A DNA stretch of 64,000 bases, taken from positions 6,146 through 70,145 of the IMG/VR virus record IMGVR_UViG_3300031952_000015; one strand, written 5' to 3'. The notes beneath the pieces were generated by a model. It saw nothing but the letters and a program-made list of their open reading frames with translations, did no database searches and was not told where the DNA came from. Of this stretch, positions 4,927-64,000 are shown in pieces; the first letter of the stretch is position 1, and each line of letters opens with the position of its first letter. Origin of the DNA: a virus. Made by a program: the position numbers and the translations under genes.

Positions 4927-7743
4927 TCAAAATCTTCCGCTGCCTCGAGCCTGCCGTTTCATCCAAGCGATCTTCTCAGGCCAAGTGACTTGGGCGAGGG
5001 TTTTCCTCAGCTCCTCAGTGTCCCGCTTCTCGAGGATCGGAAGCTTTTGCGGTCCCGGAACCGGGACAGTCGATGAATAATCTACAGTCGAGCCGATGCC
5101 AGACCTGAATCCCTCCTTAAGCAGCGCGAGAGCGTTTGCCCAGAACAGGTCTGCGTGTCCTTCAAGCCGCTTGTGGTCAGCCTTGAAGTCATAGTTCACT
5201 GCGTTCAAGTGCTTTACCTGCAGATCATCTCCGATGAAGCTCACTGAATCGTCCTGCATCATGTGCTTCATGTTTGTCGCCATCCGGTCGATGATCGGAA
5301 GCCGCTTCCCCCCTTGGCCAGATCTGACTCTCTCCGAGAACTGGATGCCCTCGACCATCGACCCATGCCGGCGTCTGAGGTAGTCGAACAGCCCAGTGCC
5401 GACGCCAGTCATGTCAATCCGGACCTTCACGATGCTCGGGAAGTGCCTGAAGAGGCTTGAAATTAGCGCTTCTTGATCTGGAGTGGAGACGTTCTTCAAG
5501 AGGCCGATGAATCGCTGTGTCATCCGCAGCTTTCCGTCCTCTGGATCGATGGTCTTCTCGAACAATGAGACTGCGGTGAAGTCTCGGCTCCGAGCGACAT
5601 CGATCCCTATGTACATCGGATTGTCAGTCTTGAAGACGAACTCAGAATCCTTTATGATGTCCTCATAGTAATTCTTCAGCTCATTGTCGATGCACTGCAT
5701 GATAAGAGAGTATGGTAAGAAGCTAAGTGAATCATCAAGGAACGAGCAATTATGAACGATCCCGATCTCAGTCAAATAGGTACTGTCGCCATCAACATCA
5801 AGATTCCAAACATCTCCAGAATAATCTTTAAAATCTATAGTTCTTATCTTAAGAAGATCAAATTTATCAAATTGAAAGACCTTGCTATGACGAACGCCCT
5901 GATGCGCTATACCAAAGAATTTAGATAGTCTTTCGAATGATTTACCATATATCTGGATTTGATAGGGGGGATTTCGGTTGACTTTCCTTCCAAGCAACAT
6001 TGCAGTTTTCCGCTTGTCTTTTGAAACATGCACACTCGAATAGACATTGTTCATAAGAAGCACGAGATTGATCTCTTTAGCCAATCTCTCCGAGATGGTC
6101 CCATAAATATATTTTTTCTCGGTCCGACAACCATCGCCATCAAAACACCCATTCAAAAGCCACATCATCTGATCCCTTGAAAGGTCCCAAACAAATTCTG
6201 GAAGGTGTTTATTCTTAGCTCCTATACCGAACAGTATGCGAAAGACGTCATGGAGAAGCTTATTAAAACAGACCACTTCTGTCGATGTCGGCCGAGTATC
6301 ATGATTTGAAATTGATGCTCGTTTCCCAAAGTACATCTCTATCGTCGTCTGGACTTCAGAAATTAATTGGCTCTCGCTCGATGAAAACCCAAACCTCAAT
6401 TGATTGCCAACGGCAGACCCTTCAGCAATATAAAGTCCAAACAGTCTAAGAACATCTCTATTAAGCGGGATCTCATCATATATTGAATTTTTAGGTTCGT
6501 TAAGTGGCAAAGAATTTCCTTTTGTCCATTTGACCTTATGATAAATCCGATCCCCAGATCTAATGAATGTGTCTCCAAGATATGCACTCAATCTGATGCT
6601 CTTAATGCCCCTGCGGCCATTCAATCTTGGAAATAGGATATAATCTCCAGGCTTGAGTTCCCCTGCCAACCTGAACTCTGGCGAGATCTTAAGGTACTCT
6701 CTCCTTGACTTGTTATTCTTGATTGAAAGGATTGGGTGATTTTTCGTGAGAGACATCTCGTTCCCTCCCCATACCTGCATCTTAACGCATTCTTCAGATA
6801 TTTTACGAGAGAGTATTCCCTTAACGATAGAAACCCCGCCATCTCGATTCAGTATCCTATCTCCAATGGAGATATTCTTGATTTGCATTGGTTTTTCTCC
6901 GAGGACGACTGTGTCAGGATGCAAGCACATTTGTTCCTGTTTGAAGATCTCAATATCTCTCTGCCGCTTCGTCTCAAGCTTCTTGACATTGATCCACGGC
7001 GCAATCGGAATAAGATTCTGAGGTTCCAGTGGCTTAAAGATGTCGACCTTGCTCGGATCATAGACTGGGAGGTTGAACACTCGGAATCCGACTGGTTTGT
7101 TGACAAGCCTGAAGAAATTATTGTTCCTGCCGTACGGCGTCGAGCCGATGATCGTCTGCGAGAGGCTTCCGATCATCGCATCCTGGACTGCTGCCAAAAG
7201 CTCATCTGATCTATTCTGGAACGCGTACTCATCGACCAGGCAGCGCATCAAGCGAAGACTTCTGACTGAATCCGCTGCGCTTCCAGACGGATATGACGCG
7301 ATGACTGATCCGGTCTTCTTGTTCCGGAGTTCAGTCTCCTTGAACTCAAACTGATCCTTGAGATTCCCGCAAGAGTTTAAAATGAACCACTTGCAGAGCT
7401 TGACTATGTAATTCGATGCCTTCTGTCGCTGCGCGATGACTGGGATAGTCTGGTTGTCGAAGATGCTCGCGGTCGTGATGATGTCGACACATGATGATGA
7501 CGTGAACGACACTCCCCTTGCTTTGATGTAAAGGATGTCCTTCGCATCAACCCCCTTGATGTTGAGCGACTCCAAGTGGAATTGCGCTTGGTACTTTGTC
7601 GGGACGTACGGGATCGGCTGGCCAGTCTCACTTCGCATCCTGAATGTGTTCGTAAGAAGCAGAAGGTACTCTTGCTGCTGAGCAGTCAACTCGATAGTCG
7701 GATCATACCAGCTCGGCAAGTACTTGATCTCAGGGAGCTCCAT
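4927..7743 (-). CDS. terL: Terminase large subunit with intein
   Basis: Walker A-like KARGVSFT, Walker B CLVDEYAF, coupling motif GSTPYGRNN, nuclease motifs YIGIDVARSRDFT, IDMTGVG and HADLFWANALAL. Confidence 0.92.
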   Translation of the reverse strand: MELPEIKYLPSWYDPTIELTAQQQEYLLLLTNTFRMRSETGQPIPYVPTKYQAQFHLESLNIKGVDAKDILYIKARGVSFTSSSCVDIITTASIFDNQTIPVIAQRQKASNYIVKLCKWFILNSCGNLKDQFEFKETELRNKKTGSVIASYPSGSAADSVRSLRLMRCLVDEYAFQNRSDELLAAVQDAMIGSLSQTIIGSTPYGRNNNFFRLVNKPVGFRVFNLPVYDPSKVDIFKPLEPQNLIPIAPWINVKKLETKRQRDIEIFKQEQMCLHPDTVVLGEKPMQIKNISIGDRILNRDGGVSIVKGILSRKISEECVKMQVWGGNEMSLTKNHPILSIKNNKSRREYLKISPEFRLAGELKPGDYILFPRLNGRRGIKSIRLSAYLGDTFIRSGDRIYHKVKWTKGNSLPLNEPKNSIYDEIPLNRDVLRLFGLYIAEGSAVGNQLRFGFSSSESQLISEVQTTIEMYFGKRASISNHDTRPTSTEVVCFNKLLHDVFRILFGIGAKNKHLPEFVWDLSRDQMMWLLNGCFDGDGCRTEKKYIYGTISERLAKEINLVLLMNNVYSSVHVSKDKRKTAMLLGRKVNRNPPYQIQIYGKSFERLSKFFGIAHQGVRHSKVFQFDKFDLLKIRTIDFKDYSGDVWNLDVDGDSTYLTEIGIVHNCSFLDDSLSFLPYSLIMQCIDNELKNYYEDIIKDSEFVFKTDNPMYIGIDVARSRDFTAVSLFEKTIDPEDGKLRMTQRFIGLLKNVSTPDQEALISSLFRHFPSIVKVRIDMTGVGTGLFDYLRRRHGSMVEGIQFSERVRSGQGGKRLPIIDRMATNMKHMMQDDSVSFIGDDLQVKHLNAVNYDFKADHKRLEGHADLFWANALALLKEGFRSGIGSTVDYSSTVPVPGPQKLPILEKRDTEELRKTLAQVTWPEKIAWMKRQARGSGRF
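5749..6927 (-). mobile_element. Intein (393 aa) with LAGLIDADG homing endonuclease
   Basis: Starts CLHPDTVV; block B LTKNHPI; LAGLIDADG-like LFGLYIAEG and LNGCFDGDG; ends VWNLDVDGDSTYLTEIGIVHN followed by Cys +1; visibly more AT-rich than the flanks. Confidence 0.93.
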
Positions 7744-18239: not shown

Positions 18240-18816
18240 CTCTCGTCTCCTCCCTCATCTTAGGTATGAACTTCTCAATCGATGTGAGCTCGCCCAACTG
18301 GAGCGAGTAAAGTTTTCGTCCATTGAGCTCAACTACATTGATCCGTCCAGTCTTGATCCTCGTCCTGAGCGTCTGCTTCGTGATGTACCCTACGCCGACG
18401 ACTCTTATTGCTCCGCTATCTGGGATCTCGCTATACCGAGCGCCCAAGTAGATGTCGAAGTCTGGATCCTTGAACGGCAGGTAGAGATTCCCAGTAGTCG
18501 TCGTCTTAACATCAATCGTCTTCTTCTTGACCTTGAAGTCTGGCTTGTCCCACTCTGGCTTGATGAACTCGATCCACTCGTGCGGGATCTTGTTCTCAGT
18601 GAGCCATCGGTCGAAGCAGTGCTCGCCGAGGTAGCCGATGAAGTTAAGCTTCTGATCTGCCTCTGGATAAGCTTTCTGCTGGTCAAACTCTCGAGTCTTC
18701 TCTCGCGCGAGCGCGAGCAATGCCGGCGAAATCTCATACCACAATTTGCCTGACCTCAAACCCGAATCGGTCCTTCCAGACCCAGACCTCTCTCGTCGCC
18801 CAGATTGGCACGACAA
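18202..18816 (-). CDS. Restriction-endonuclease-fold (PD-(D/E)XK) protein
   Basis: GYLGE...PDFKV...IDVKTT; true start probably near 18740. Confidence 0.6.
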   Translation of the reverse strand: MSCQSGRRERSGSGRTDSGLRSGKLWYEISPALLALAREKTREFDQQKAYPEADQKLNFIGYLGEHCFDRWLTENKIPHEWIEFIKPEWDKPDFKVKKKTIDVKTTTTGNLYLPFKDPDFDIYLGARYSEIPDSGAIRVVGVGYITKQTLRTRIKTGRINVVELNGRKLYSLQLGELTSIEKFIPKMREETRDGGGISAEGLPA

Positions 18817-19042
18817 GGGTCTTGATCTCGCGAATCCCGATCTTCAATTGGCTATTGACGCGCGACTTTGTCCGCTTGACTTGGATGAACCGGACTGTCT
18901 CCGCACTGGTCGCGACAAGATCGGCTGGCGATTGAGATCCGGTCGCGCGGATCACTTGGAATCCATTCATGATCAGCTCAGCTTTCGCCTGCAGCTCAAC
19001 TTGATACCCGCGCTGATAGTTTGTGACCATCAGGATGGGCAC
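18734..19042 (-). CDS. hjc: Hjc-like Holliday junction resolvase
   Basis: YQRGYQVE...GFQVIRATGS..PADLVA...FIQVK. Confidence 0.7.
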   Translation of the reverse strand: MPILMVTNYQRGYQVELQAKAELIMNGFQVIRATGSQSPADLVATSAETVRFIQVKRTKSRVNSQLKIGIREIKTLVVPIWATREVWVWKDRFGFEVRQIVV

Positions 19043-23810: not shown

Positions 23811-24770
23811 TTAGACATCTTTGATCCCTCCACGGGTGATGATGAATGGTGCCTCGCCGTCCGGGAGGTGCGGAGCGTCGACCAGCTTCGCGACCTTAGT
23901 CCCCCTGGACCCCTTCCGCAAGTAGATGCGGTACATCGCATTGTGGCCGACGATATGGCCGCCAACTGCTCGAGTCGGATCGCCGAACAATTGGCCTGGA
24001 TTCACCATGACTTGGTTTGTGACATAGACGATGACGTTGTAGATGTCGGCGAGCCGTGTGAGGTGCTGGAGATGTTTGTTGAGCTTCTGTTGCCTCTCAG
24101 CGAGCGTCCCTCGCCCGAGGTACTCCCCCCTGAACGCGGCAGTAAGACTGTCGACGACGATGAGCTTCACAGGGAGCTTGTCGTCGGTGATCAGCCTCTC
24201 TGCCTTCTCAGCTAAGAGCATCTGATGGTCGGTCGAGTAGGATCGCGCATATTTTATGTTCTTCAAGACCAACTCTCCATCGATGCCGGCAGCCTCCGCG
24301 ATCTCCCGGATCCGCTGCGGCCTGAAGGACCCCTCGCTGTCAATCCAAATGCACACGCCGCTGTGGGGCTCTTTTTGGACGTTCACTGCGAGCTGATGGG
24401 CGATCTGCGTCTTGCCAGAGCTGAACTCGCCATAGCACTCAGTGATGCTCCCAGACTCGAACCCGCCGTCGATGAGCGCGTCGAGCTTCTCGCTCCCGAT
24501 CTTGACATGGAAGATCTTCTTCCGATATTCTTCCTGCTCGAACCCAGTCTTGAAGTCTAATCCGCAGAGCTCTCGCGCCGCGTTGATCAGCTTCATGGTG
24601 GAGAGCTTGTTCATCTCAGTGAGATCCATCACGTCGGCCACTGAGGCAGTCGCGATCTTCATCAAGGTGGAGTAGCCGGCGTTGATCAGCTTCTCCGCAG
24701 TCGCTGGTCCGACTCCAGGCAGGTCGGTGATCTCAGAAACAGTCTCCTCAGTCTCGGGCTTCTTCTTCAT
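23811..24770 (-). CDS. radA: Archaeal DNA recombinase RadA
   Basis: HhH DLPGVGPATAEKL, Walker A GEFSSGKTQ, IDSEGSFRPQRI, VVDSL, GRGTLAERQQKL, TNQV, GGHIVGH, KLVDAPHLP. Confidence 0.96.
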   Translation of the reverse strand: MKKKPETEETVSEITDLPGVGPATAEKLINAGYSTLMKIATASVADVMDLTEMNKLSTMKLINAARELCGLDFKTGFEQEEYRKKIFHVKIGSEKLDALIDGGFESGSITECYGEFSSGKTQIAHQLAVNVQKEPHSGVCIWIDSEGSFRPQRIREIAEAAGIDGELVLKNIKYARSYSTDHQMLLAEKAERLITDDKLPVKLIVVDSLTAAFRGEYLGRGTLAERQQKLNKHLQHLTRLADIYNVIVYVTNQVMVNPGQLFGDPTRAVGGHIVGHNAMYRIYLRKGSRGTKVAKLVDAPHLPDGEAPFIITRGGIKDV

Positions 24771-24957
24771 CTTGATCCTCGTCCAGCTTCATCTTCTCGA
24801 TGTTGCTCAGGTTGATCGCTTGGACTCCGCTCCGAGCGAGCTCGATCTTCGCGAACTGCCCGCCGTCGATCCCAAGGAACACTCCGTGGAGCGCCTTGAT
24901 CGCATCGCCGTCCTTGATGACCATCTTGACCCGCTTGTTCAGGAACTCTTCAAACAT
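24748..24957 (-). CDS. Sm/LSm-like small beta-barrel protein
   Basis: FLNKRVKMVIKDG...LHGVFLGID...INLSNIEKM. Confidence 0.45.
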   Translation of the reverse strand: MFEEFLNKRVKMVIKDGDAIKALHGVFLGIDGGQFAKIELARSGVQAINLSNIEKMKLDEDQDEEEARD

Positions 24958-25020
24958 GTGCTACCCTCCGAGAATTTGACTCATCTCGCCTCGCCTGCAG
25001 TGATGAATTCATTGCCATTT

Positions 25021-25470
25021 TTAATCTTTGCCCTCCTGACGCCACATTTTGAACTTCTCAAGACTCTGGTCATATCGCTTGCCCTTCCCGTACTTCTCAT
25101 CATCTGAAAGAGCATCCCATTCTTGATGACACTTCGAAGAACAAAAATACGAATATGTTGTGCCTCTAAAGTATCGAATAAGCCCGGGCGTTCCGCAGTT
25201 CGGGCAGTAAGAGACATATTCTCCAACTCCACACTCTTCATCATCAGGCAATTGTCCTCCTGTCAAATCCCACAACGGAAGCTTTGAACTGACAGAGTTA
25301 AACTTTGCACATTGGGCGGTTATCCCGAACTTATCATAGAACCATTGACGGATCGGCTTCCCCTCCATCGACATCGAACTTGAGAGATGAAACGCATACC
25401 TGCTCGTTTCCTTAAGTGCATCGCAATATTGGTCAATCACTTTCTGCACTGCCATCTGTGTATAGTTCAT
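25021..25470 (-). CDS. Zinc-finger (CxxC...FCSxxC) protein
   Basis: CPNCG...YFCSSKC. Confidence 0.55.
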   Translation of the reverse strand: MNYTQMAVQKVIDQYCDALKETSRYAFHLSSSMSMEGKPIRQWFYDKFGITAQCAKFNSVSSKLPLWDLTGGQLPDDEECGVGEYVSYCPNCGTPGLIRYFRGTTYSYFCSSKCHQEWDALSDDEKYGKGKRYDQSLEKFKMWRQEGKD

Positions 25471-26145: not shown

Positions 26146-27597
26146 TTAATCATTGCTCTCATTCTTCATCCCTAGATAAAATTTCTCCTCCTTGAGCTGG
26201 CAGACCCAGATGCAGTTCCTAGACTGCTTCGGGAACAGCGGCGCGAAGATGACTGAGACCAGATTGCAGTCATAGTACTCGCTGAGCTCATCGAAGAGTT
26301 GTCTCTGAGCAGGAGTCATCAGCTTCTCATAGTCCTTCTGGGATGCGAACGTGCCGTAGACCTTCTTGATCTTGAAGTACTTCGACAGCAGCATCTCCAT
26401 CTCAGCGTACGTCAGCTCGCCGACCTCTCCCTCGATCATGTGGTTGTCTGCGGCGCCGACCTTCGCGTCATAGCATGGCGTCGAGATCATCAGGACAGTA
26501 TTCTGGTTCATGTGTGATTGGATGTTCATCATGAACTGGTTATGGTTCTTCTTCCCGATGTGCTCGAGGACCTCGAAGCAGGTGATGAAGTCCCAACTAT
26601 TCCCATACTTCCCAGCGGGCGCCGCGATGTCTCCAGCCATCGTCGGATCGCACAGGTCTTCAACCTCAAATCTTACCCACTTGGTGACGAGATTCGCATA
26701 CTTCTCCTTGAGCGATTCGATCGTCTTATCTCGGATGTCGATCCCGAGATAGCTCTTAATGCAGCGGCGGTTGTGGTACAGCGTCGCCAGATTGCCACCA
26801 TCACCACAGCCCCAGTCCAAGAGAGTCTTCTCATGGAAGTTCGGCGTGATGAGCTTCAATAGATAGCTCCACCGGAGGTAGTGGGCGAAGATGTCGCGGT
26901 GGAACACATGGTTCTCGAACGAGACCTCAGGGTAGAGTTGGGTTCGGTTATACTTAGTTTTCCTCTTGACTGGACTCTCTGCAGGCTTCGGCGCATTATG
27001 CTCCTCAGCATCGATCTCCTGGTGCATTGCCTTGTCCTTCTCATAGTGCTCGAACATTTCTGCCACATTAACCTCCTCCACCGGCTTTGAGTACCCAGCT
27101 TCCCACTCCATGATGTAGTCGTAGATCATCTCTGGAGTCATGTCGTCAACGAACACAAGCAGCTTGCGCTTGATGTTCGACGCTGCGAACTCTCGCCCGA
27201 ATCGTATCAAGATCTCCGGGATCTGCTCTGGCTTGATGAACTTCCCGTCGAACCTTGACAGCACAAGCTCAGGCGATGCAGTCAAGACAATCAAGATTGT
27301 ATTCTCATTGAGCGTTCTCTCTAATTCTCGCATGTAGTCTGGATAGTAGTTTCTGAAGATCGGCCCATAAATGCACTCGCCGAGAAGAAATCTGTCATAG
27401 ATGATGTCGCAGCCCGCATTGAGATCCTTGATTCCTCGGATGTACTCTTGCCGAGCATACTCCTTCTGATCGCTTTGCGAGAGGTTGATCGGCGGGTTCT
27501 TGCAGTGGCGGACATCAAATGTCCCATGCTTGAGGAACTCGTTGATCAATGTAGTCTTTCCAGTACAGTCACATCCACAAATTAAATAATTTGTCAT
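26146..27597 (-). CDS. dNMP kinase fused to class I SAM-dependent methyltransferase
   Basis: N-terminal P-loop GCDCTGKTT and DRFLLGECIYG; C-terminal LLDWGCGDG, LGIDI and CFEVLEH. Confidence 0.85.
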   Translation of the reverse strand: MTNYLICGCDCTGKTTLINEFLKHGTFDVRHCKNPPINLSQSDQKEYARQEYIRGIKDLNAGCDIIYDRFLLGECIYGPIFRNYYPDYMRELERTLNENTILIVLTASPELVLSRFDGKFIKPEQIPEILIRFGREFAASNIKRKLLVFVDDMTPEMIYDYIMEWEAGYSKPVEEVNVAEMFEHYEKDKAMHQEIDAEEHNAPKPAESPVKRKTKYNRTQLYPEVSFENHVFHRDIFAHYLRWSYLLKLITPNFHEKTLLDWGCGDGGNLATLYHNRRCIKSYLGIDIRDKTIESLKEKYANLVTKWVRFEVEDLCDPTMAGDIAAPAGKYGNSWDFITCFEVLEHIGKKNHNQFMMNIQSHMNQNTVLMISTPCYDAKVGAADNHMIEGEVGELTYAEMEMLLSKYFKIKKVYGTFASQKDYEKLMTPAQRQLFDELSEYYDCNLVSVIFAPLFPKQSRNCIWVCQLKEEKFYLGMKNESND

Positions 27598-54732: not shown

Positions 54733-55086
54733 TCAGATGAAGAGCAAGAGCACTCTCAGTCCGTTGTCCGGCGCAGTTGTCGTCTTGGTCTCGATGGCGA
54801 TCGCGGTGAGCGTGCCAGCGGCGAGCGCGGTCAGCGTCTGGCCGTCTGCCTTCAGCTCAAGCTTGTCGCCGAAGCTGTAGGTCGCATTGTCAGTCAGCGG
54901 CGACTTGACGATGCCGCTCACGATGACGCCGACGAGCTCGCCGGCAACCTTCGTGGCGTTCGCCATGCCGATCGCTGTCGCTGCGCCGTCGTTGCCGACC
55001 ACTCCGCCAGAGCCGTCCTGCTTGACGTACTGGTTCGCGAGGATGCCGCCAGTCCCGACGACAGCCCCGAGTATGTAGCTCTTCAT
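54733..55086 (-). CDS. Capsid cement/decoration protein (DUF2190-like)
   Basis: 117-aa Gly/Ala-rich protein after the MCP; AIGMA...GELVGVIVSGIV...FGDKL...DG. Confidence 0.7.
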   Translation of the reverse strand: MKSYILGAVVGTGGILANQYVKQDGSGGVVGNDGAATAIGMANATKVAGELVGVIVSGIVKSPLTDNATYSFGDKLELKADGQTLTALAAGTLTAIAIETKTTTAPDNGLRVLLLFI

Positions 55087-55183
55087 AGTCGTTTCCTCCT
55101 TCTTGGGTTTACTCCTGCTGGATGACCCCCTCCCTCGCGGGAGGAGTGTTCACCCGATGAGGAGAGCGATGCTCTCAGTCTGC

Positions 55184-56161
55184 TCAGGCTGTGCCCTTGC
55201 AGATGGCGTACGGGTAGATCACGGCCAGCACGTACGACATGAGGCCGACGACCTCACGATCGTATGGGCGACCCGGGATCGCGCCCTCGTAAGTCTGCAG
55301 ATCTGACTCCTTGATCAGCATCGCAGCCTTCTTGTTGTCAAGCACAAGGTACTTGGCAGCTGTGAGGAACGGCGTCTCCACGAGCTTCAAGTTGCCGAAT
55401 ACCAACGCGGGGCGGTTGATGACGAACTCGTCACCAGGCCGTGCGTTGGCATAGTACACGTGAGCTTTCCACTCAGCAGTCTTCTTGAGCGTGCCTGACT
55501 CAGATGTCGCAAGCACCAGGCGGTTCGCCAGGAAGCCGTAGGGCACGCCGTTCGCGTACACAGCAGCGTTGACCTTGGTCTCCGAGTTGATGATGTTGTC
55601 GTAGGTCGTTCCGCCGCCCTGTGAAGATCCGGCGCCGGCTGCGAGCCCGTTCACGATGTCAGTGGCGAGCTTCCTTGTGATGGCGTCAGCTGCGTTCTGC
55701 AGGACGAACTTCACGAAGTCGGTCATGCCCCTCTTCATGATCTGCCATGTGAGCGCAGTGCCCGCGACCACTGGACGGCAGGTGACTGTGATTGAGTCAG
55801 CACCCTCGTCGAAGTAGTTCACGACCTGGCCTTCTGCGATCTCGTAAGCGATCGTGGGCAGCAAGCGCGGGATCTGGTATGCGCCGAATCCGCCCTTGTT
55901 CAGGAGATCGTTGTTCATGAAGACAAGCTCCATGATGTCCTTGATGTTCTCGATGGCCGCGCTGTAGAGCGTGGTCGAGAGCATTGTGGTGTAGGCGCCG
56001 CTACCGGTCGTTGTGGTCACGTCCTCCTTGAACGTGATGCCGAACGATTCGGCGAGCACTCGCGTCTCTGGCTTGGCTGCGAATGACTCAGCGAGCAGCT
56101 TTCCAGCCATCTCTGTCAACTGGTTGCCGTAGTTTGTGAACTGCGGCGCTTTGTATGCCAT
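55184..56161 (-). CDS. Major capsid protein (HK97 fold)
   Basis: 325 aa after protease and scaffold; IAYEIAEGQ, ADAITRKLATDIV, FGNLKLVETP. Confidence 0.85.
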   Translation of the reverse strand: MAYKAPQFTNYGNQLTEMAGKLLAESFAAKPETRVLAESFGITFKEDVTTTTGSGAYTTMLSTTLYSAAIENIKDIMELVFMNNDLLNKGGFGAYQIPRLLPTIAYEIAEGQVVNYFDEGADSITVTCRPVVAGTALTWQIMKRGMTDFVKFVLQNAADAITRKLATDIVNGLAAGAGSSQGGGTTYDNIINSETKVNAAVYANGVPYGFLANRLVLATSESGTLKKTAEWKAHVYYANARPGDEFVINRPALVFGNLKLVETPFLTAAKYLVLDNKKAAMLIKESDLQTYEGAIPGRPYDREVVGLMSYVLAVIYPYAICKGTA

Positions 56162-56178
56162 AGTTGTCCCCCTCCGTT

Positions 56179-56784
56179 CTAACTGTACAGGACCCTGCTA
56201 AGAGCCCTTCCGATGTTCTCCTTGTCCGCTCTCTCGGTCTTCACCGTCTCGGTGAATGCGTTGACGAGCTTCGCCTTCTCTGTGAGAGGCGGTTGCGGCT
56301 CCTCCTCGTCCTTCTCTGGAACTAAAGGAGCGGTACCTTGACCCTTTTCTCCCTCGAGCGCCTCGACTCTCTTCGAGAGCTTCTCGAGGATCTCGACGAC
56401 CTTGCCCATGTCATCCTCATACTGCTCGCAGAAGTGCTCGAGCACAGTCTGCTCGGCTCCCTGCTTCTTCGAGAGGTCGTCCTGAGATGCGGTCTTGGCA
56501 TTCAAGTCAGTCCCGCCAGCGGCGATGTTCGTCGCGGGCTCGGTCTGCTTGTCATTCTCAAGTTCGCCCTCTTGGTACTTCTTCCCGAGGTCATCCTGAG
56601 ATGCTTTCTCGGGATTCGGTGTCGTTGTCCCCTGGGTGATGTTCGCGCCAGGCTCTGCCTGGACATCTTTCTCACGTACGTTTTCCCTTTGACTTTTGGC
56701 CATCGCCAGATCCTCCCTCAACTTTCGATTCTCTTCCATGACATTCTTGAGCATTTCCCTTGGTTCCATGGTCACACCCGCCAT
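56179..56784 (-). CDS. Scaffolding protein
   Basis: Acidic coiled-coil protein between protease and MCP; internal repeat QxEPxxNIxxGxTxxNxxxASQDDLxKK twice. Confidence 0.7.
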   Translation of the reverse strand: MAGVTMEPREMLKNVMEENRKLREDLAMAKSQRENVREKDVQAEPGANITQGTTTPNPEKASQDDLGKKYQEGELENDKQTEPATNIAAGGTDLNAKTASQDDLSKKQGAEQTVLEHFCEQYEDDMGKVVEILEKLSKRVEALEGEKGQGTAPLVPEKDEEEPQPPLTEKAKLVNAFTETVKTERADKENIGRALSRVLYS

Positions 56785-56810
56785 CCGATAGCCTGTCCTA
56801 GGCTTCTTAG

Positions 56811-56825
56811 TATTTAAAAATGATT
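56811..56825 (-). promoter_or_regulatory. Putative late promoter AATCATTTTTAAATA
   Basis: Member of the repeated 15-mer family; upstream of scaffold and MCP. Confidence 0.62.
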
Positions 56826-56826
56826 C

Positions 56827-58089
56827 TTAATGGTAGGAAAAGGGCGACCTCACGGTGCCCCGCTTGGCGTCCTCGAGTATCTTCGAGTAGACCGTCTCGG
56901 CATCAGTGGCGGTCGGGTAGGCGAACGTCCAGAAAGCAGAGCCTAGCTTGACGATGTACCCGAAGCCCTCATACTCCTCGATGCTCAAGACCCCGAGCTT
57001 AGTCTCAGCCTTCTTGACTGTCTTCTGCTCTCTGAATCTCATCATCTCGGCGAGCGCCTCTGCCGGCGGGATCTCGCTCGTGATCTTCGATGCCTTGAGC
57101 TCATCCTCCATCTTCGCAAGGTGAGTGTAGTAGTCAGGGAATTCTGCGAGATGCGCCTTTGCGATCTGCTTCGCTAAGTCCTTGTCATCTGTGTGCTCAG
57201 TCTCAACCTCGGCTCCCGCAGCAAGCTGAGATGGATCGAATTTGTCGTCCGGGTCATCTCCATGCTTGAGCGTCGAGAGCGCCTCCTTGAATGACTCAGT
57301 GTCCTTCTTGCCGACGATCTTCGTTGGCGCCATCGCGCCTCCCCCAGTCGTGGTTGTGACGTCCTCCTTGCACTCGGCGACTGCAGCTACTGGCCGAAGC
57401 TCCCCATACGGAGCCTCGGACTCAGAGCCGTCCTCCCACTTGACCTTCGCGGCATTGGCCGAGAAGCCTGTCACGTCTCCCCTCCTTCCCTGGGCGTCGA
57501 TGATCTTGTCGCCAATCTTGAACGGCACATCCATCTGCTCGAGATTGATATTTGTCCCTGGCGGGGATCCGAGGGCCTCCGCGAACTTCGCAGTAGTATC
57601 GAGGAATCCAGGCGCTGGGACAATGGATCCCTCGATGATGTCCGAGACCCATGCCTCAGTGAACGTCCTGCCAGTAGACTCCTCGAGCCGCTCGATGACC
57701 TTGCCGCCGAGGAGCTGGATCGAGACGTGCCGCAGGTCCTCGCGCTTGAGCTTGCCGATCAGTTCTTCCTCTCTTGGGTCGATGTCGGCCTTGTAGTGCC
57801 AGCCGTCGTCCTCAAGCCACGACTCGATGAAGTGGCCCTTCGGCATCATGTCAGTATCTACCTTGTGGTTGTACATCACTGGCCGTCCGATGAGCTGCTT
57901 GTGCTTCTCCCTGATCGACTCAACATTGTACAGCACGTTGTTCCGCGAGATCTTCCCGAACGGGAGCAGCAGTCCCTCCATGATAAACTTTTTCGAGCCG
58001 GTCTGCGGGTTAATTGCTTCTGCGAACCGGAACGGGCTCTCTGACGGGATCCAGATCTTCTCAGTGAAGATCCTCATGTTCTCTGCCAT
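56827..58089 (-). CDS. Prohead protease (clan SH) with appended C-terminal mini-domains
   Basis: SRNNVLY, RPVMYNH (His), RHVSI (Ser), EGSIVPAPG; then an SH3-like module, a DUF5661-like GAEVETEHTDD...AKAHLAEFPDYYTHL module and a beta-beta-alpha module. Confidence 0.85.
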   Translation of the reverse strand: MAENMRIFTEKIWIPSESPFRFAEAINPQTGSKKFIMEGLLLPFGKISRNNVLYNVESIREKHKQLIGRPVMYNHKVDTDMMPKGHFIESWLEDDGWHYKADIDPREEELIGKLKREDLRHVSIQLLGGKVIERLEESTGRTFTEAWVSDIIEGSIVPAPGFLDTTAKFAEALGSPPGTNINLEQMDVPFKIGDKIIDAQGRRGDVTGFSANAAKVKWEDGSESEAPYGELRPVAAVAECKEDVTTTTGGGAMAPTKIVGKKDTESFKEALSTLKHGDDPDDKFDPSQLAAGAEVETEHTDDKDLAKQIAKAHLAEFPDYYTHLAKMEDELKASKITSEIPPAEALAEMMRFREQKTVKKAETKLGVLSIEEYEGFGYIVKLGSAFWTFAYPTATDAETVYSKILEDAKRGTVRSPFSYH

Positions 58090-58093
58090 GATT

Positions 58094-60028
58094 TCACCTC
58101 TTGCTCTCGCCGTAGGCGAGCGCTCTCCACATCCGATTGAGGACGCTTGAGACGCCCTCCTTCTTCTCTGTGATCACTTGAGTGCTGTAGTCCACTAATT
58201 GCTTCTGAGTGTCACTCGGGACCTCTGACCATGATCTGGCGGCTAAGCTCTTGTCAGCGTGGACTGACTGGAGCATCTCTTCTTTTTCCTCCATCGACAG
58301 GATGTTTGTCCACCAGAACTCATTGCTCTCTGATCTTTCCGTGAACTTCTGAGACATCGCTCGCGCGTAGGACTTCTCGAACTCCTCATCTACTTTTTTC
58401 GTCTCCTCTGGAGTGAGGTCCTTCGGGCTCTTCTTGAAGAGCTGCTGAGCGATCGCCTGATAGTCTTCGACTGGGCTCTGCTCTCTGAGATTCTCGATCC
58501 CGAACAGCCCCTTGATGAACTTGCTCGCGATCTTGTAGATGGCTGCCTCGATGTCAGGCACTGGGATCCCGATCTGATCAGCGAGCTCGTGGACCATCTC
58601 GTCAGTCGGGTCTGGGTTCATGGCAAGGAACTTCACGACCTTCACGACCAAATCGTCTGGGACTGCTGACTCGCACTTAGTCACAATGCTCTCGATGAGC
58701 GTCACATTCGCTGGGTCGAAAGCACCATGCTTCAGATAGCCGTCGAGGTCCTTCTGGATGTCCGCTGGAAGAGACTCCCAACTTAATTTCGCCCAGGCTT
58801 TCGTCTTCTCGCTCGGGAAGTAGCCGATCACTTGGAGGAACTTGACTTTCCCAGACTCGTCAAGCGATTGCCATTTGTTCCGTCCACGATAGAGTCGTGG
58901 ATCGCCTTCCTTGAGCGATTCGTCCTTAAACAAACCCCAATTCGGGTCATAGTCGGGTTCCCACCAACCGAGTTGCATAGAAGGAGGATTCTTCTGCCTA
59001 CGCAACTTGTCAGCACACGACTCACAAACTTCACCAATGCCCTTAACGTCATAGTAGATGGCTTTCTTTGGCTCCGCTGGTAGTTGGCGTACTGGTATTT
59101 TCTTTTTGCAGATGGAACATACCGGAGGTTTGTCATTTTCCGTAAAAGATTCCCGTTTATTTCCATACTTCTCCTTGAGCGACTCCCCAAAATCAACAAA
59201 TCCACATTCAGGACATTTATACTTTCGGTCAGCAGTTCCGAGAAGCGCACCACACTTCTTGCAGTGAAAGTCGTAGGGATTTTCTTTTCGTTCTTTAGGC
59301 GATGGAACGTCTCGTTTTTCTTTGAACGACTCCATCCGGCTCTTCGCCTCGGAAATCAGAGCTCGCGCCGCGTTGATCGGGAACCCTCGCTCGTTGACGA
59401 GCCAAGAGAAGATTGTCTTCTCAGTCTCGCCTTGCTTGAGCTTGTCTTGGATCTGCTTGAATGCTCCATCGCTCTCTGCGAGCGACTCTCCTCTGCGCTT
59501 CTGTGACATCATGATGGCGACGTGCTGCGCTATCGCGTCCTTCTTAGAATCGTGGCAGGCGATGACGCTCCCTGCGGGCTTGTCAGTCTTAGATCCAGGC
59601 TTCTGAGGATGCCCGTGCAGGACGCACCACTTGTCGCCGCGCTTCGCGATTGTCTCCTTGCAAGCTCCTTTTTCGAACAATGGCATCCCCTTCTCGCGCT
59701 TGTATTGAGAGTAAAGCTGCATCATGTCCCCATCTGTCTCGGCTTCAAGGTTATGCCCTGCCTTGAGGACCCAATCTAAAAAATCCTTGCTGAAGTTCTG
59801 CTCGACCCACTCAGGGCTGACCTCTGAGAAGGATTCTTCCTTCTGCTCCGCAGCTGCGATGACGACGTTCGCGACGTCGGGATCGACACTGAACCGGTCG
59901 ACGATAAGCTCCTTGATCTGGGATTTCGGCTTTCCGAGCTGGAGCTGCACCCGCGCGTAGCGAACCATCTGCTCCTGCCAGCGCGGAACTCTCTCACTGA
60001 GCCTCTCTAATCGTTCTCTGAATCCCAT
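58094..60028 (-). CDS. Modular polyprotein B (about 10 mini-domains separated by ES(F/L)xE-type motifs); putative internal head protein
   Basis: N-terminal MGFRERLERLSE; linkers ESFSE, GACKE, ESLAE, ESFKE, ESLKE, ESFTE, ESLKE, ENLRE, KFTE. Confidence 0.75.
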   Translation of the reverse strand: MGFRERLERLSERVPRWQEQMVRYARVQLQLGKPKSQIKELIVDRFSVDPDVANVVIAAAEQKEESFSEVSPEWVEQNFSKDFLDWVLKAGHNLEAETDGDMMQLYSQYKREKGMPLFEKGACKETIAKRGDKWCVLHGHPQKPGSKTDKPAGSVIACHDSKKDAIAQHVAIMMSQKRRGESLAESDGAFKQIQDKLKQGETEKTIFSWLVNERGFPINAARALISEAKSRMESFKEKRDVPSPKERKENPYDFHCKKCGALLGTADRKYKCPECGFVDFGESLKEKYGNKRESFTENDKPPVCSICKKKIPVRQLPAEPKKAIYYDVKGIGEVCESCADKLRRQKNPPSMQLGWWEPDYDPNWGLFKDESLKEGDPRLYRGRNKWQSLDESGKVKFLQVIGYFPSEKTKAWAKLSWESLPADIQKDLDGYLKHGAFDPANVTLIESIVTKCESAVPDDLVVKVVKFLAMNPDPTDEMVHELADQIGIPVPDIEAAIYKIASKFIKGLFGIENLREQSPVEDYQAIAQQLFKKSPKDLTPEETKKVDEEFEKSYARAMSQKFTERSESNEFWWTNILSMEEKEEMLQSVHADKSLAARSWSEVPSDTQKQLVDYSTQVITEKKEGVSSVLNRMWRALAYGESKR

Positions 60029-60030
60029 GA

Positions 60031-63000
60031 TCATCCCCAGAACTGCTTTTTCATCGTGTCTCCACGACCGTGAGGCCAGGTAGCTGGATTCGCGTAGAGG
60101 CTGCCGCAGACCGCAGCTGGGTCTTTTGCGAACCCTGCAGACTTCGCCCAGTCCATGCACTTGTCCCAGCCGGCCTTCGGCGGGCGGTCATCCTGTTCCT
60201 TGAAGGACTCGCGGAGACTCTCGATGCGGCTGCGGAAGGACTCCTTCACGAGATACTCGGTTGGAACCTCTTCAACACTTCCGTCGGGATGCTGCACCTT
60301 TGCCGTGCGATGCTCAACGTCATCAAAATTAAGAATCGTCATCACTGGCGATTCCGGTGCTCCTGCGAACTTTACTTTATCTCCTTTCTTGAGTGCTTCC
60401 TTGAAGGACTCCCTCAGTTTTCTCCAATCGGCGGGATGGCTCGACATGTATCTATTTGCTCCGGCCACTGCGTCTTGTTTAGATTTGAAAAAATTAATTT
60501 CAATATTCTTGCCGGTCGCTGGCCTGTATACATTGTACGCCCACTCATCCTTGCCAGTTGCTGGATTCTGATATTGACCGATCTCCACGACAGTTTCCTG
60601 GGGTTTCCAATCGGACCATAACCCTTCCTTGAAGGACTCTCCGCCCCATTTGGGCTCTTTCGCTTGCTTGTATCTCTGGTCGAGATCATCCTTGAGTTGC
60701 CCTTTCTGGCTGCTCGTCAAGTCTGACTTGTCGATGAGAGATCTCGTCGACTTCACTTGGAATGCGACATCTCGAATATCATCAGCCGTCTCGAACGTGA
60801 GGTCGATGAGCTTCTTGAACCCATCCAATGTAGTCGGGTGGAAATCATCAGCTTCCTTGAAGGACTCCTTCATCATTCTTACAGTCTCATCAACGAAGGT
60901 CTTCTGTTGTTGGGTGAGTTCATCATACCTCTTCTTGAACAGTTTGAGAGCCCAATCATTTTTTTTAAAATTCGCCTCCTTGAAGGACTCAGGGAACTTC
61001 CATCCCTTCGCAAGAAGTTCATCTGCCTCAGTCCGGGTCTCAACAGTCGTAACCCCGCCGGTTCGCGGATTCACTAGATGATACACTTCCTTGAAGGACT
61101 CCTTAGTTTTTTTATCAATTTTACGCTTCGCGTCTGTGACTGCGGCAGATTCAGATGGGAAAGGACCATAGTCCTCCGAACCCCATTCTTCATCCTCTTC
61201 ATCCCAAAAGATACGACTTCCCCAATCCTTATCCTCAACATCATAAATAACATTCACGTCATATCCTTTATATTTAAACACGGTCACTTTTTGCTTATCT
61301 ACTTTCTCACTCATTTTTTCCTTGAAGGACTCCTTCGCTTTCGCCCTTCGCTGGAGGAGCAGTGACCACAGCTGAGACTCAGCCCAATCACTCGCTTCAT
61401 CTTCAGTCTTGAATCCGCCCTTGCTGTTGAGATGGGTGCTTCCCTCGAAGGTGACATTCCACGTGCCGTGGCGCTCTTGCTCTACCTCGTAGAGCTTCTC
61501 CTTCGGCTCGCCTTTCTCCTTAAAGGACTCCTGAGCCATTGCATCCTTTATCTTCTTGGCTGCCTTGTTGATTTTCTCAGCCGCATCTTTGTCGCCAGCA
61601 GCAGCAGCAAAAAACAACGCATCTGCCTGCTCATTCGTCAGATTGTACTTAGACATCAATTCGGCCTTGACCTCTCCCACCGATGCCTCCTTAAACTTGC
61701 AGGCTTCCCTCTTGCCGTACCTCTCCCTGAGCTGCCTGAGCGGCTCTGCGGTATCCTCGATGTGCTCCATAGAATTTCCCCCCGTCCACGTTGCGACCAT
61801 ATCCTCGAGTTCGCTTTTGTTGATGACTATGGTTTTTGTAGCTCCATCCATGAGGACTGTGATCTCGTTCCCGGCGACGTCCTTGACGATCCCAGTCGCG
61901 CTCTTTAGCTTCGGCTTGAACGTAAACCGCATCCCAGGATGGATGCTCTCCTTGAGAGACTCTTCCTGCTCTCCTGCCTCGGGAGGATTCAACAGCATTC
62001 CATTCCTCGCTCGCGCGCCGGGGGTCCTCAACTCGCACGCCTGATAGTGTCCCTCTGAGCCGATGCCGAATCCGCATCGCGAACAATACCCATAGGTCTC
62101 TCCTTCCTGTTCCTTGAAAGACTCCAACCGGCTACGGAATGATTCCCGATGTGTTGCTATGTAATCATTCGCCCACCGTTCAGCTTCAGATTTATCCTTG
62201 AATTCATGAGTGACAATGGCTGGATGGATAGCATTCCCGAGCCGGTCCGTGTTCCACAGCGACGCCCACCATTTGCCAGATGAGTCAGTCGTGAGATTCA
62301 AGGCCTTCATGGTCTTCTTGTTCATCCAGACGTCCTTTCGCTGCTCTTCCCAGGATTCTTTAAGAGACTCCTTGTTCGGGTAGTTCTGGAGCTTGGCCTT
62401 GACATTCGGAAGCTCGATCTGGTACGCCTCCCCTCCTTGGACGACCCGCTTGATCTTGCCCTTCTGTTCGCTGCCCCCCATGTCATGGAAGCTGACCTGC
62501 TCGCCAGGCTTGAACTCGACCTGCTCTTTGAGAGATTCTCCCATCTTCGCTCCATCGCGGATCATCCGCGCTCTCTGCTGTTCTTCTCTTGACAATTCTC
62601 CGTATTCCTTCTTGAAGAATGCTCTTGCGATCGCGTCAAGATCGTCTGTCCCAGTCGCTTCCTTGAGCGACTCCAGCCGGCAGCGGAAGGATTCTGGCCC
62701 ACCAAACGAAACGCTAACATCCTTTCCTCCAGCCTTAGAAATCTTATCCGCCTCTTCGTCCGCTTGTGGTCCCGGAACTTTTTTAGTATGGAATTTCCCA
62801 TTCTTATCTGTCCAGTCAATGCTGGCCATTCCTCGTTGCTTTTTTTGAATTAAGTCTGGCACATCGACTTTTATCTCTTTGAAGGATTCTGCCTTCGGCA
62901 TCCGCTGAGCCTTGAGCGCTTCGTCTGCGACTTTCTTTCCTAATTCGGTAAGCTCTCCGCCCTTGACCCAGCCCAAGGCCTTTGAGAACTGTGAGTTGAC

Positions 63001-64000
63001 CATCTGAGTCTCGATGTCTTCTCGCGAGAGCGATTCCTTGAGTGACTCATTCATCGGGAACTCTCCCATCAACCGAACTACGTTATCCTTCGCTCCCGCG
63101 TAGTCCTTCTGTAGAATCGCGCTCTTCAAGTCATCCATCAACAATTGGACGTCTGAATCATCCAACGGCGCGAGTCCGTCAAGTCGCTTCCATGCCTGCA
63201 TAGCATCATCCCATCGCTGAGCGAGAATAAATCCCTTGAGGTCGTCAAGGGTGTCATATCCTTCGCCTTCCTTGAAGGACTCCTTCTTCGAGTCAAGTGC
63301 CTGGTACTTAGATTTCATCTTATTGAAGAAATCCTGAGCTGACGACCTGGTTTTGAAATCCCTGTCGAGCTCTTTGATTACTTCTCTGGTCCTCAGGTCT
63401 TCTCCCCAGGTCGACCAATAGGTCCCCTCTTCGGTGTCGTTCGTCTCATCAAGACCGAGTGCGTACTTTTTCCCATACCAACTATCGATCACGTCCGTCC
63501 CGGAGGACTCCTTGAAGGACTCAGAGAGCGATTCAAGCCGATTGCGAAATGACTCACCATAAAACTTGTCATCGAATGCCGTGTTGACCTTAGTCTTCTG
63601 GTCATCTGAAAGATCGACGTACTTCTTGCCAAACATCTTCTGAGAGAGATCATCTTTCTCTCCAGAAAGCTTTTCCCTGAAGGACTCCTTGATTTTGACT
63701 CCTTGCGCCTTCAAATCTCTGATAACGTCTTTGACATATTCAGCAACCCTTGAAAAATCTGCCGGTGGCACTTCACGCTTAAATGCAGCAAGAACCATAG
63801 CAACAGTTTCGCCGCGCGTCAATCGCTCTTCTGCATCATCGATGAATCCTTGCATCTCATCATCACTCATTTTTTCCTTGAAGGACTCCTTCATCATTCT
63901 TACAGTCTCATCAACGAAGGTCTTCTGTTGTTGGGTGAGTTCATCATACCTCTTCTTGAACAGTTTGAGAGCCCAATCATTTTTTTTAAAATTCGCCTCC
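60031..64000 (-). CDS. Modular polyprotein A (over 1320 aa, 5' end outside the window; at least 21 mini-domains separated by ESFKE/ESLKE); putative internal head protein
   Basis: The frame stays open to base 64000; more than 20 ES(F/L)(K/R)E linkers at roughly 30-80 aa spacing. Confidence 0.8.
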   Translation of the reverse strand, partial: EANFKKNDWALKLFKKRYDELTQQQKTFVDETVRMMKESFKEKMSDDEMQGFIDDAEERLTRGETVAMVLAAFKREVPPADFSRVAEYVKDVIRDLKAQGVKIKESFREKLSGEKDDLSQKMFGKKYVDLSDDQKTKVNTAFDDKFYGESFRNRLESLSESFKESSGTDVIDSWYGKKYALGLDETNDTEEGTYWSTWGEDLRTREVIKELDRDFKTRSSAQDFFNKMKSKYQALDSKKESFKEGEGYDTLDDLKGFILAQRWDDAMQAWKRLDGLAPLDDSDVQLLMDDLKSAILQKDYAGAKDNVVRLMGEFPMNESLKESLSREDIETQMVNSQFSKALGWVKGGELTELGKKVADEALKAQRMPKAESFKEIKVDVPDLIQKKQRGMASIDWTDKNGKFHTKKVPGPQADEEADKISKAGGKDVSVSFGGPESFRCRLESLKEATGTDDLDAIARAFFKKEYGELSREEQQRARMIRDGAKMGESLKEQVEFKPGEQVSFHDMGGSEQKGKIKRVVQGGEAYQIELPNVKAKLQNYPNKESLKESWEEQRKDVWMNKKTMKALNLTTDSSGKWWASLWNTDRLGNAIHPAIVTHEFKDKSEAERWANDYIATHRESFRSRLESFKEQEGETYGYCSRCGFGIGSEGHYQACELRTPGARARNGMLLNPPEAGEQEESLKESIHPGMRFTFKPKLKSATGIVKDVAGNEITVLMDGATKTIVINKSELEDMVATWTGGNSMEHIEDTAEPLRQLRERYGKREACKFKEASVGEVKAELMSKYNLTNEQADALFFAAAAGDKDAAEKINKAAKKIKDAMAQESFKEKGEPKEKLYEVEQERHGTWNVTFEGSTHLNSKGGFKTEDEASDWAESQLWSLLLQRRAKAKESFKEKMSEKVDKQKVTVFKYKGYDVNVIYDVEDKDWGSRIFWDEEDEEWGSEDYGPFPSESAAVTDAKRKIDKKTKESFKEVYHLVNPRTGGVTTVETRTEADELLAKGWKFPESFKEANFKKNDWALKLFKKRYDELTQQQKTFVDETVRMMKESFKEADDFHPTTLDGFKKLIDLTFETADDIRDVAFQVKSTRSLIDKSDLTSSQKGQLKDDLDQRYKQAKEPKWGGESFKEGLWSDWKPQETVVEIGQYQNPATGKDEWAYNVYRPATGKNIEINFFKSKQDAVAGANRYMSSHPADWRKLRESFKEALKKGDKVKFAGAPESPVMTILNFDDVEHRTAKVQHPDGSVEEVPTEYLVKESFRSRIESLRESFKEQDDRPPKAGWDKCMDWAKSAGFAKDPAAVCGSLYANPATWPHGRGDTMKKQFWG
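60198..63888 (-). repeat. Dispersed 13-bp repeat GAGTCCTTCAAGG (encodes ESFKE)
   Basis: Exact copies (plus strand ccttgaaggactc) start at 60198, 60399, 60627, 60855, 60978, 61089, 61320, 63270, 63510 and 63876, with further variants. Confidence 0.9.
63874..64000. repeat. Exact duplicate (at least 127 bp) of module 60853-60979
   Basis: Base-for-base identical, offset 3021 bp (in frame), bounded by the ESFKE repeat. Confidence 0.92.

Follow-up and report, generated by a model that had tools for sequence, protein, structure and literature searches.

Small proteins that are injected together with viral DNA are the first weapons of a virus against host defences, and the renewal of this arsenal is poorly known outside phage T4. 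The internal proteins (IPs) of T4, which comprise IPI, IPII, IPIII and Alt and are encoded at hyperplastic loci, are described as diverse injected proteins that share only a capsid targeting sequence and are processed by gp21 (PMC3012670). More than 30 variants are reported, shuffled among T-even phages, and a conserved flanking sequence is implicated (PMC3012670, PMC2839356). This system is the closest functional analogue of the locus that we analyse here, two adjoining genes, A and B, in a 64,000-nucleotide (nt) window, i.e. the whole stretch of DNA under study. The window covers bases 6146-70145 of the 70,145-nt record IMGVR_UViG_3300031952_000015 from an uncultured sediment virus. Genes A and B together encode 27 copies of a peptide linker, ES[FL][KR]E, which divide their products into 28 modules of 36-270 residues. 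Like T4 IPs, the encoded modules are small and diverse and would be delivered inside the capsid; a conserved leader and ES[FL]KE are, by position, candidate counterparts of the T4 signals, and a prohead protease is encoded next to them. Whereas every IP has a gene of its own, complete with start and regulatory element, ~24 modules here lie in one chain of 1793 amino acids (aa) in which the signal is repeated internally. The leader is without sequence similarity to the T4 targeting sequence, and the virus also differs from T4 in having archaeal-type RadA and Hjc and a protease of S78/S77 fold.

In terms of mechanism, the closest analogue is the shuffling mediated by PeSLs in T4-type phages. PeSLs are described as conserved short sequences that flank variable units and act as preferred recombination sites, with relatives differing exactly there (PMC2839356, Arbiol et al. 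2010); the same authors already drew the analogy to integrons, and mini-circles are shown for PeSLs (PMC2839356). As in PeSL-bounded regions, a short sequence is common to both sides of the variable units and bounds the differences between relatives. However, a PeSL is an intergenic promoter plus stem-loop of ~100 bp and its cassettes are whole genes, whereas the linker here is a coding sequence of 15-16 nt and the units are in-frame domains.

Three other systems share features with the array. Polyvalent proteins are described as very large, multi-domain proteins encoded beside MuF/portal genes, with extensive domain mosaicism, and are presumed to accompany the DNA and to undergo processing by peptidases (PMC5512222, Iyer et al. 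2017). The array likewise has many domains (24 modules) in one polypeptide, a virion-packaging context and mosaicism. Polyvalent proteins hold 2-15 recognisable enzymatic or anti-restriction domains with no uniform linker, in contrast to the tiny unannotated modules of 36-199 aa and the single constant linker found here. No Pfam or PHROGs profile, including those for effector and anti-restriction domains (MPTase, ArdC, methylase, PBECR and others), scored above cut-off in genes A or B, and no domain was significant in 1322 + 508 residues. In CdiA-CT and orphan toxins, a VENN motif borders the variable module and homologous recombination there is thought to swap modules (PMC7662968). In both cases a conserved peptide and its coding DNA mark the module border, but the CdiA-CT exchange belongs to a bacterial secretion system and replaces only the terminal module along with an immunity gene, whereas here many internal modules of a virion gene are affected.

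The array resembles integrons in that units of independent origin have a repeated site at their borders and are gained, lost and re-ordered. A first-pass annotation of this DNA had called it integron-like, a term that survives only as an analogy. Profiles for tyrosine recombinases (PF00589, which matched in 14/14 control genomes) and serine recombinases (PF00239) found no match in the 70-kb record, and nothing attC-like was seen, although no attC or fold model was run. With only 15-16 nt, 11 of them in a dyad, the repeated unit seems too small to form a hairpin like that of attC. Further, the modules lie in one 1793-codon frame and are not separate promoterless open reading frames (ORFs) expressed from Pc, and there is no IntI-type recombinase. 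The array is not an integron. Literature searches, including searches on archaeal-virus polyproteins and prohead proteases and on DUF5661, showed no description of an ESFKE-type array in the titles and abstracts of the papers listed.

Linker DNA and exchanged cassettes

The window part of gene A (60031-64000, minus strand) holds its C-terminal 1322 codons and the stop codon. Past the contig junction the gene extends into L001 1-1524, where positions marked L001 or G000 are those of the whole record, including the part outside the window. Across the junction it forms one open frame of 1793 codons with 24 modules. Gene B (58094-60034, minus strand) encodes 646 aa, has a leader-like N-terminus as in gene A and contains three ES[FL]KE linkers. 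The stop of gene A and the start of gene B overlap as ATGA, so a frameshift fusing the two genes, which we considered, is not needed. The modules are mostly mutually unrelated, and a few are weak paralogues. Elsewhere, ES[FL][KR]E occurs once in ~15,000 codons of 52 other genes, and once more in the prohead protease. A looser pattern, ES[FLIMV][KR][ED], has four further matches in the six frames of the record, of which two are in the protease ORF, one in a nucleotide kinase-methyltransferase gene and one in a 47-codon frame. The single ESLKE in this kinase-methyltransferase fusion (26146-27597, minus strand), the sole one in a long ORF outside the head region, is probably due to chance.

The first-pass annotation had reported that ten linkers share an exact 13-mer, synonymous positions included, and both statements hold. 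The 13-mer, GAGTCCTTCAAGG, has 10 exact matches in the window, all on the minus strand, compared with 0.00 expected from dinucleotide shuffles, where 0/100 reached 10. The copies lie at 60198-60210, 60627-60639, 61089-61101, 63270-63282 and 63510-63522, at 60399-60411 and 61320-61332 (the two sides of a rearranged joint), at 60855-60867 and 60978-60990 (the downstream and upstream edges of the first copy of a repeat) and at 63876-63888 (the downstream edge of the second copy). Gene A holds 11 copies when circularised. The linker serine is encoded by TCC in 14/27 linkers of genes A and B, compared with 72/959 Ser codons (7.5%) in the 52 other genes (binomial p 1.4e-9) and 13/142 Ser codons of genes A and B outside linkers (p 1.8e-8). 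Before Phe, TCC makes up 3/47 Ser codons elsewhere. Likewise, the string GAG TCC TTC AAG occurs in 11/17 ESFKE linkers, where codon usage predicts 0.89 (p 8e-11). Because TCC and the four-codon string so far exceed their usage in other genes, we reject codon bias as the sole source of linker DNA identity. Use of TCC depends on the type of linker (14/18 ESF[KR]E, 0/9 ESL[KR]E), and along gene A the canonical linkers are gathered in two zones (9 runs vs 14 expected, p 0.02). The pattern looks like one of young cassettes with fresh linkers beside older cassettes with synonymous drift.

The order and content of modules are not fixed among relatives, which was a point that the first-pass annotation had put forward for comparison. 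We compared the window with two assemblies, X1, an independent Logan k-mer assembly of the source run, and X2, a run from another study, and with protein collections. A 2391-nt contig of X2 (record 10) carries the ANFKK module and both of its linkers (window 60851-60998, 147/148 nt identical) and after them 329 nt of other sequence. This is followed by the module KGEPKEK... with both linkers (61318-61532, 214/215 nt), which is joined directly to the module ALKKGDKVKF... with an extended linker (60196-60396, 201/201 nt). The joint skips 921 nt, or five modules, of the window, and 16 letters at it fit both sides. X2 record 12 holds a fourth module, ATGTDD... (62522-62658, 136/137 nt), in P0002-like surroundings. 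All four are on the minus strand of the window, and together they are identical to X2 at 698/701 nt in a different order and context. At an 85% identity threshold, X2 contigs cover 11/30 bins of 55000-64000, in short pieces. The ends of the shared segments fall within 8 nt of a linker in 8/8 cases, although only 15% of positions qualify (p ~3e-7, or ~1e-5 if only six ends are counted as independent). Of the exchanged modules, ANFKK is flanked on either side by a canonical linker, and for two others this holds on one side at least.

Two word-index protein searches with the window part of gene A had only two matches, P0001 (852 aa) and P0002 (639 aa). P0001 starts with a protease domain that shares 35% protein identity with the protease of the window, and fused to it is an ESFKE-linked chain in which three modules are residue-identical to those of gene A, in another order and with other neighbours. 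Its module order is that of X2 record 10. In-frame cassettes are acquired, dropped, duplicated and put in new orders, with the breakpoints lying at the linker, and those exchanged between viruses that are otherwise distant measure 123-215 nt and share 99.6% of their nucleotides. With unit borders on one constant 15-nt linker, the locus is a clean natural example of such exchange. Of the short-homology shuffling put forward in the first pass, insertion, deletion, duplication and re-ordering at the linker are seen by comparison, and the recombination process that would produce them we infer.

The duplicated module and the circular contig

One complete module had been noted to occur twice with identical DNA, bounded by linkers. 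The duplication is real, with the two copies at non-adjacent places, but its extent required correction. Positions 60853-60979 and 63874-64000 are 100% identical over 127 nt, a length that is an effect of the contig end, since window position 64000 is the end of the contig and lies inside the repeat. The full repeat is 139 nt and consists of a linker, the 108-nt ANFKK module, a second linker and 1 nt, as seen in the first copy (60853-60991, minus strand). The second copy (63874-64000, minus strand) is cut by the contig end and straddles the junction, so that its last 12 nt are contig bases 113-124.

In the X1 assembly the 139-nt repeat stands as its own unitig, with a depth of 16. Two records lead into it, one of 558 nt (60325-60882) and one of 2942 nt, and two lead out of it, the 2942-nt record again and one of 17,650 nt that runs on into the first unique letters of the contig. 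The X1 assembly graph is a figure-eight. Any genome that holds the 2.9-kb segment (60962-63903) has two copies of the repeat, because the repeat is at both ends of that segment. The X1 depth of this segment is 9.2, compared with 10.6-11.8 in its flanks, a difference that lies within the noise of contig depths. Genomes without the segment might explain it, but the values are too noisy for a claim of deletion variants.

The first 112 nt of the record are the same as its last 112 nt (63889-64000), and IMG/VR classes the record as one with direct terminal repeats, with a CheckV completeness of 74%. The direct terminal repeat that marks the record as complete is a copy of the internal repeated module, and closure still looks real from the graph and the gene order. 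Circular closure gives the order terL-portal-array-protease-scaffold-capsid.

A candidate dual role for the linker and its rivals

Genes A and B, placed between the portal/MuF and the protease-scaffold-capsid genes, form an in-frame array of small, mostly unrelated cassettes, each ending in ES[FL]KE, which the evolutionarily young cassettes encode by identical 15-16 nt. We hypothesize that the linker has two functions. The linker peptide, which ends in Glu, would most likely be recognised or cut by the prohead protease that the virus itself encodes. By means of its conserved C-terminal anchor the chain could enter the procapsid and then be cut into many small cargo proteins. At the DNA level, the linker would serve as a short homology patch at every cassette border, where cassettes could be joined in frame when related viruses that infect the same cell, or two linkers within a single genome, recombine or undergo template switching. 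The products would be insertions, deletions, dispersed duplications and re-orderings. Joining could occur by strand exchange, annealing or template switching in recombination-dependent replication, for which RadA and Hjc are at hand. As a whole, this dual role of the linker, as a prohead-protease site and as a guide for cassette recombination by homology, seems to us reasonably probable. Homology-guided recombination would be the best mechanism for the exchanges; we infer the guidance of crossovers by linker homology, the identity of the enzymes and the cutting of the peptide.

The deduction of a protease site draws on several lines of evidence. The genes sit among head genes, and arrays or anchors are fused to prohead proteases in other viruses. 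One ESFKE (57283-57297, minus strand) parts the two domains of the protease encoded in the window. FKE and CKE precede a common DVTTTTG in the capsid protein and in the protease, respectively. Finally, the prohead proteases of T4, phiKZ, 201phi2-1 and SPN3US are all described as cutting C-terminal to Glu (PMC5694885).

Should the linker act as protease site and recombination handle alike, one gene could load, release and exchange dozens of unrelated mini-proteins. The ~28 modules are candidate new anti-defence proteins of an archaeal-type virus, and the arrangement of anchor, linker and cargo offers a possible design rule for packaging foreign proteins in capsids. A wider reading, to which we give somewhat less than even weight, is that the dual-coded linker makes the head gene a "protein integron", through which divergent viruses (35% protease identity, 34-52% GC) would share a pool of capsid-delivered mini-proteins in a chain that ends in a capsid anchor.

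Several observations weigh against the dual role, or at least against its simplest form. A stretch of 15-16 nt is short for strand exchange of the RecA/RadA type. Identical linker DNA is not needed at every junction, because the exchanged module at 62522-62658 is flanked by non-canonical ESLKE linkers and its upstream neighbour in P0002 reads EALKS. Base composition does not mark the modules as foreign. The first-pass annotation had pointed to visible differences in composition between neighbouring modules, with an AT-rich example that is borne out, as the module at 61087-61317 (minus strand; GC 0.394, and GC at third codon positions, GC3, 0.377) is the lowest of the 28; the differences among modules, however, do not exceed the genome background. 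The standard deviation of GC3 among modules is 0.100, compared with 0.101 +/- 0.030 in length-matched chunks of other genes, and 48% of controls had a GC3 spread at least as large (the spread of GC is borderline, at 5.2%). As low a value as that of the AT-rich module is found in 2.0% of same-length windows in other genes, with 28 modules tested. A single-sequence AlphaFold model of 499 residues, with a mean pLDDT of 49 and therefore not used as evidence, tended to place linkers within helices. Lastly, X1 and X2 were analysed at contig and unitig level, where no recombinant junctions within one population were seen.

Both the duplicate module and the circular closure could be products of assembly at the repeat, and the modules shared with X2 could be products of chimeric contigs. 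In keeping with this, the end of the contig coincides with the second repeat copy, the direct terminal repeat reproduces an internal module and CheckV completeness is only 74%. However, the independent k-mer assembly of X1 yields an identical graph, in which the 2.9-kb segment bears the repeat at both ends, and closure restores the head-gene order and a single 1793-codon frame. Linkers share only 16 nt and cannot fuse contigs at a Logan word length of 31, the value assumed here and one that fits the 30-nt overlaps in the X1 and X2 assemblies. P0001, from a separate assembly, shows the same order as X2 record 10. On the strength of the X1 graph, the gene order on closure and the order in P0001 we reject an assembly artefact, which we consider extremely improbable; the first-pass annotation had itself named this as a possible cause of the duplication, and the independent graph refutes it.

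Another explanation is that crossovers are unguided or illegitimate and that selection retains the survivors in which whole domains stay in frame. The linker would then be kept as a peptide, i.e. as a protease site or spacer, and its identical DNA would be a hitch-hiking trace of the recent common descent of young cassettes. The ESFKE peptide is kept in the distant, K/N/I-rich protein P0011, which indicates that the peptide itself is under selection, and the ESLKE linkers have mixed codons. The module at 62522-62658 moved with non-canonical linkers and an upstream context in P0002 that is not ES[FL]KE, and 16 nt is little homology, although small (<50 bp) homology patches are reported to be enough for recombination in T4-type phages (PMC2839356). 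The 16-nt stretch at the X2 joint fits short-homology and selection-filtered illegitimate recombination alike. Such a filter alone, however, would also let through breakpoints that fall a few codons inside the flexible ends of modules, whereas the repeat stops <=1 nt from the outer edge of either linker and the joint in X2 is inside the shared 16-mer. Moreover, 11 linkers keep all synonymous sites though they flank unrelated modules. We consider selection acting by itself unlikely, if less so than a site-specific process, in which a sequence-specific nuclease or DNA-binding protein (e.g. an HNH enzyme) would cut or mark a palindrome in the linker and repair would move the cassettes. The canonical linker does contain an 11-nt palindrome, TCCTT-C-AAGGA (5+1+5), which is completed by the rare TCC codon, as well as a GAGTC word, and an HNH_3 gene lies at L001 2784-3386. 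The palindrome has 11 copies, all in the array and none elsewhere in the record, but some 0.07 occurrences of an 11-mer are expected by chance in 70 kb, so its absence elsewhere is uninformative. HNH genes near terminase and portal genes usually serve DNA packaging, the record has no match to a tyrosine or serine recombinase, and the palindrome is missing from 16/27 linkers, even though one or more modules bordered by linkers of this kind were exchanged. A site-specific process is thus very unlikely in our estimation. We retain the dual-role linker, with guidance of the crossover by its homology, as the preferred explanation.

Gene neighbourhood, module features and relatives

Downstream of the array are genes for the prohead protease, a scaffold-like protein and an HK97-type capsid protein. 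The prohead serine protease (56827-58089, minus strand) has an S78/S77 fold in residues 1-185, then the single ESFKE and then a DUF5661 domain. It had no direct Pfam match, and a comparison with solved structures gave no meaningful match (E 0.96). In the ESM Atlas, residues 1-185 matched Peptidase_S78/S77 clusters, with feature scores of 0.94-0.95 and a TM by query of 0.69-0.75, indicating that a prohead protease of assemblin-like fold is encoded among the head genes. On the upstream side of gene A are a portal/minor-head (MuF) fusion, an HNH endonuclease and two small ORFs. The fusion (L001 3268-5934, minus strand) matches phrog_2662 (E 1e-10) and head-morphogenesis families, and has a Hint domain at residues 775-885. 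The HNH_3 gene lies between the portal gene and gene A. The virus is tailed, as shown by baseplate J and large terminase genes, and also encodes PolB. The large terminase (window 4927-7743, minus strand) contains an intein with a LAGLIDADG domain.

The first-pass annotation had named RadA, a Cas4-like exonuclease and Hjc as enzymes that could drive the shuffling. The two confirmed candidates are a RadA/Rad51 recombinase (23811-24770, minus strand; Rad51 PF08423, E 1e-78) of archaeal type with an HhH domain, and a match to Hjc-type Holliday-junction resolvases (18812-18982, G000 24957-25127, minus strand; PF01870, 25.8 bits, above cut-off). A Cas4-like exonuclease was not confirmed, as the Cas4 (PF01930) and PDDEXK_1 (PF12705) profiles gave no match, which leaves room for a divergent nuclease.

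The start of the leader, M-x-(x)-F-R-E-x-L, is common to gene A, gene B and the ORF at L001 2211-2639. Some linkers are extended to ESFRxRLESLxE and resemble the N-terminal leader M-x-F-R-E-x-L-x-R-L. The 13-residue leader is present twice in gene A (L001 1289-1328 and 1487-1526), 198 nt apart and with 98% DNA identity over 40 nt, and this doubling looks like a leader-plus-module unit added at the 5' end. A 30-nt stretch consisting of a linker and the first four codons (KMS.) of a module is identical at 61307-61336 and 63863-63892 (both minus strand), whereas the two modules otherwise differ. In both copies the linker AAGGA followed by ATG resembles a ribosome-binding site and start codon, and because of this resemblance some modules might also be started internally. 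At the other end of gene A, a C-terminal anchor module (RPPKxGWDKC..., 60034-60207, minus strand) is the sole part of the gene kept in the nearest kin.

Database searches with these proteins and with the linker DNA returned few relatives. No close relatives of gene A or of the major capsid protein were found among GenBank phages by tblastn, and scans of IMG/VR with the protease, gene A and P0011 gave no matches. A scan of JGI metagenomes with an alignment of gene A and P0001 gave 596 pattern matches, of which 0 were confirmed. Degenerate double-linker DNA patterns hit 1, 0 and 3 loci in IMG/VR (three distinct loci, as L002 is listed twice) and 4 loci in GTDB genomes, none with an in-frame array. 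In JGI metagenomes they hit at least 31 loci, none of them an array; nearly all belong to an unrelated repeat, which makes that scan uninformative. This non-coding repeat (L003-L033), a unit of ~200 nt in which a word resembling GAGTC..CTCAAAGAA occurs, takes up many of the contigs in a small number of metagenomes and has no bearing on the array. An exhaustive search of 1.84 billion representative proteins gave 9 matches, six to the C-terminal module and three to single internal modules (P0002 included).

In the protein searches, modules or an architecture in common with the array were confined to P0001, P0002 and P0011. P0011 (802 aa), which is known as a protein only, has an ESFKE/ESYKE array with a similar leader, and its own nearly identical module occurs at two non-adjacent places.

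The nearest IMG/VR kin, a locus of 20,966 nt (L041), shares 79% identity in the major capsid protein, 51% in the protease and 56% in the portal. Its portal protein (781 aa) ends without a Hint domain. The interval from its portal to its protease gene holds nothing but small individual genes and one for a protein of 191 aa, in which the C-terminal 74 residues match the end of gene A at 59%. L041 has no counterpart of gene A residues 1-1720 or of any of gene B, and the whole array was lost or gained between these kin. The GC content of L041 is 34%, compared with 52% here, a very large shift given capsid proteins that are 79% identical.

The anchor (RPPKxWWDKC...) was found at 32 IMG/VR loci, with ES[FL]KE-type repeats in 0/32 of the anchor ORFs. 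A protease occurs in the same ORF in several of the 31 that were scanned with profiles (Peptidase_S78 in 8/31 and S78_2 in 2/31), and P0005 and P0006 likewise combine an anchor and a prohead protease. A match to CBM_14 (chitin-binding Peritrophin-A; best E 1e-11) was present in 6/31 anchor ORFs, which is unexpected for a protein of the head interior.

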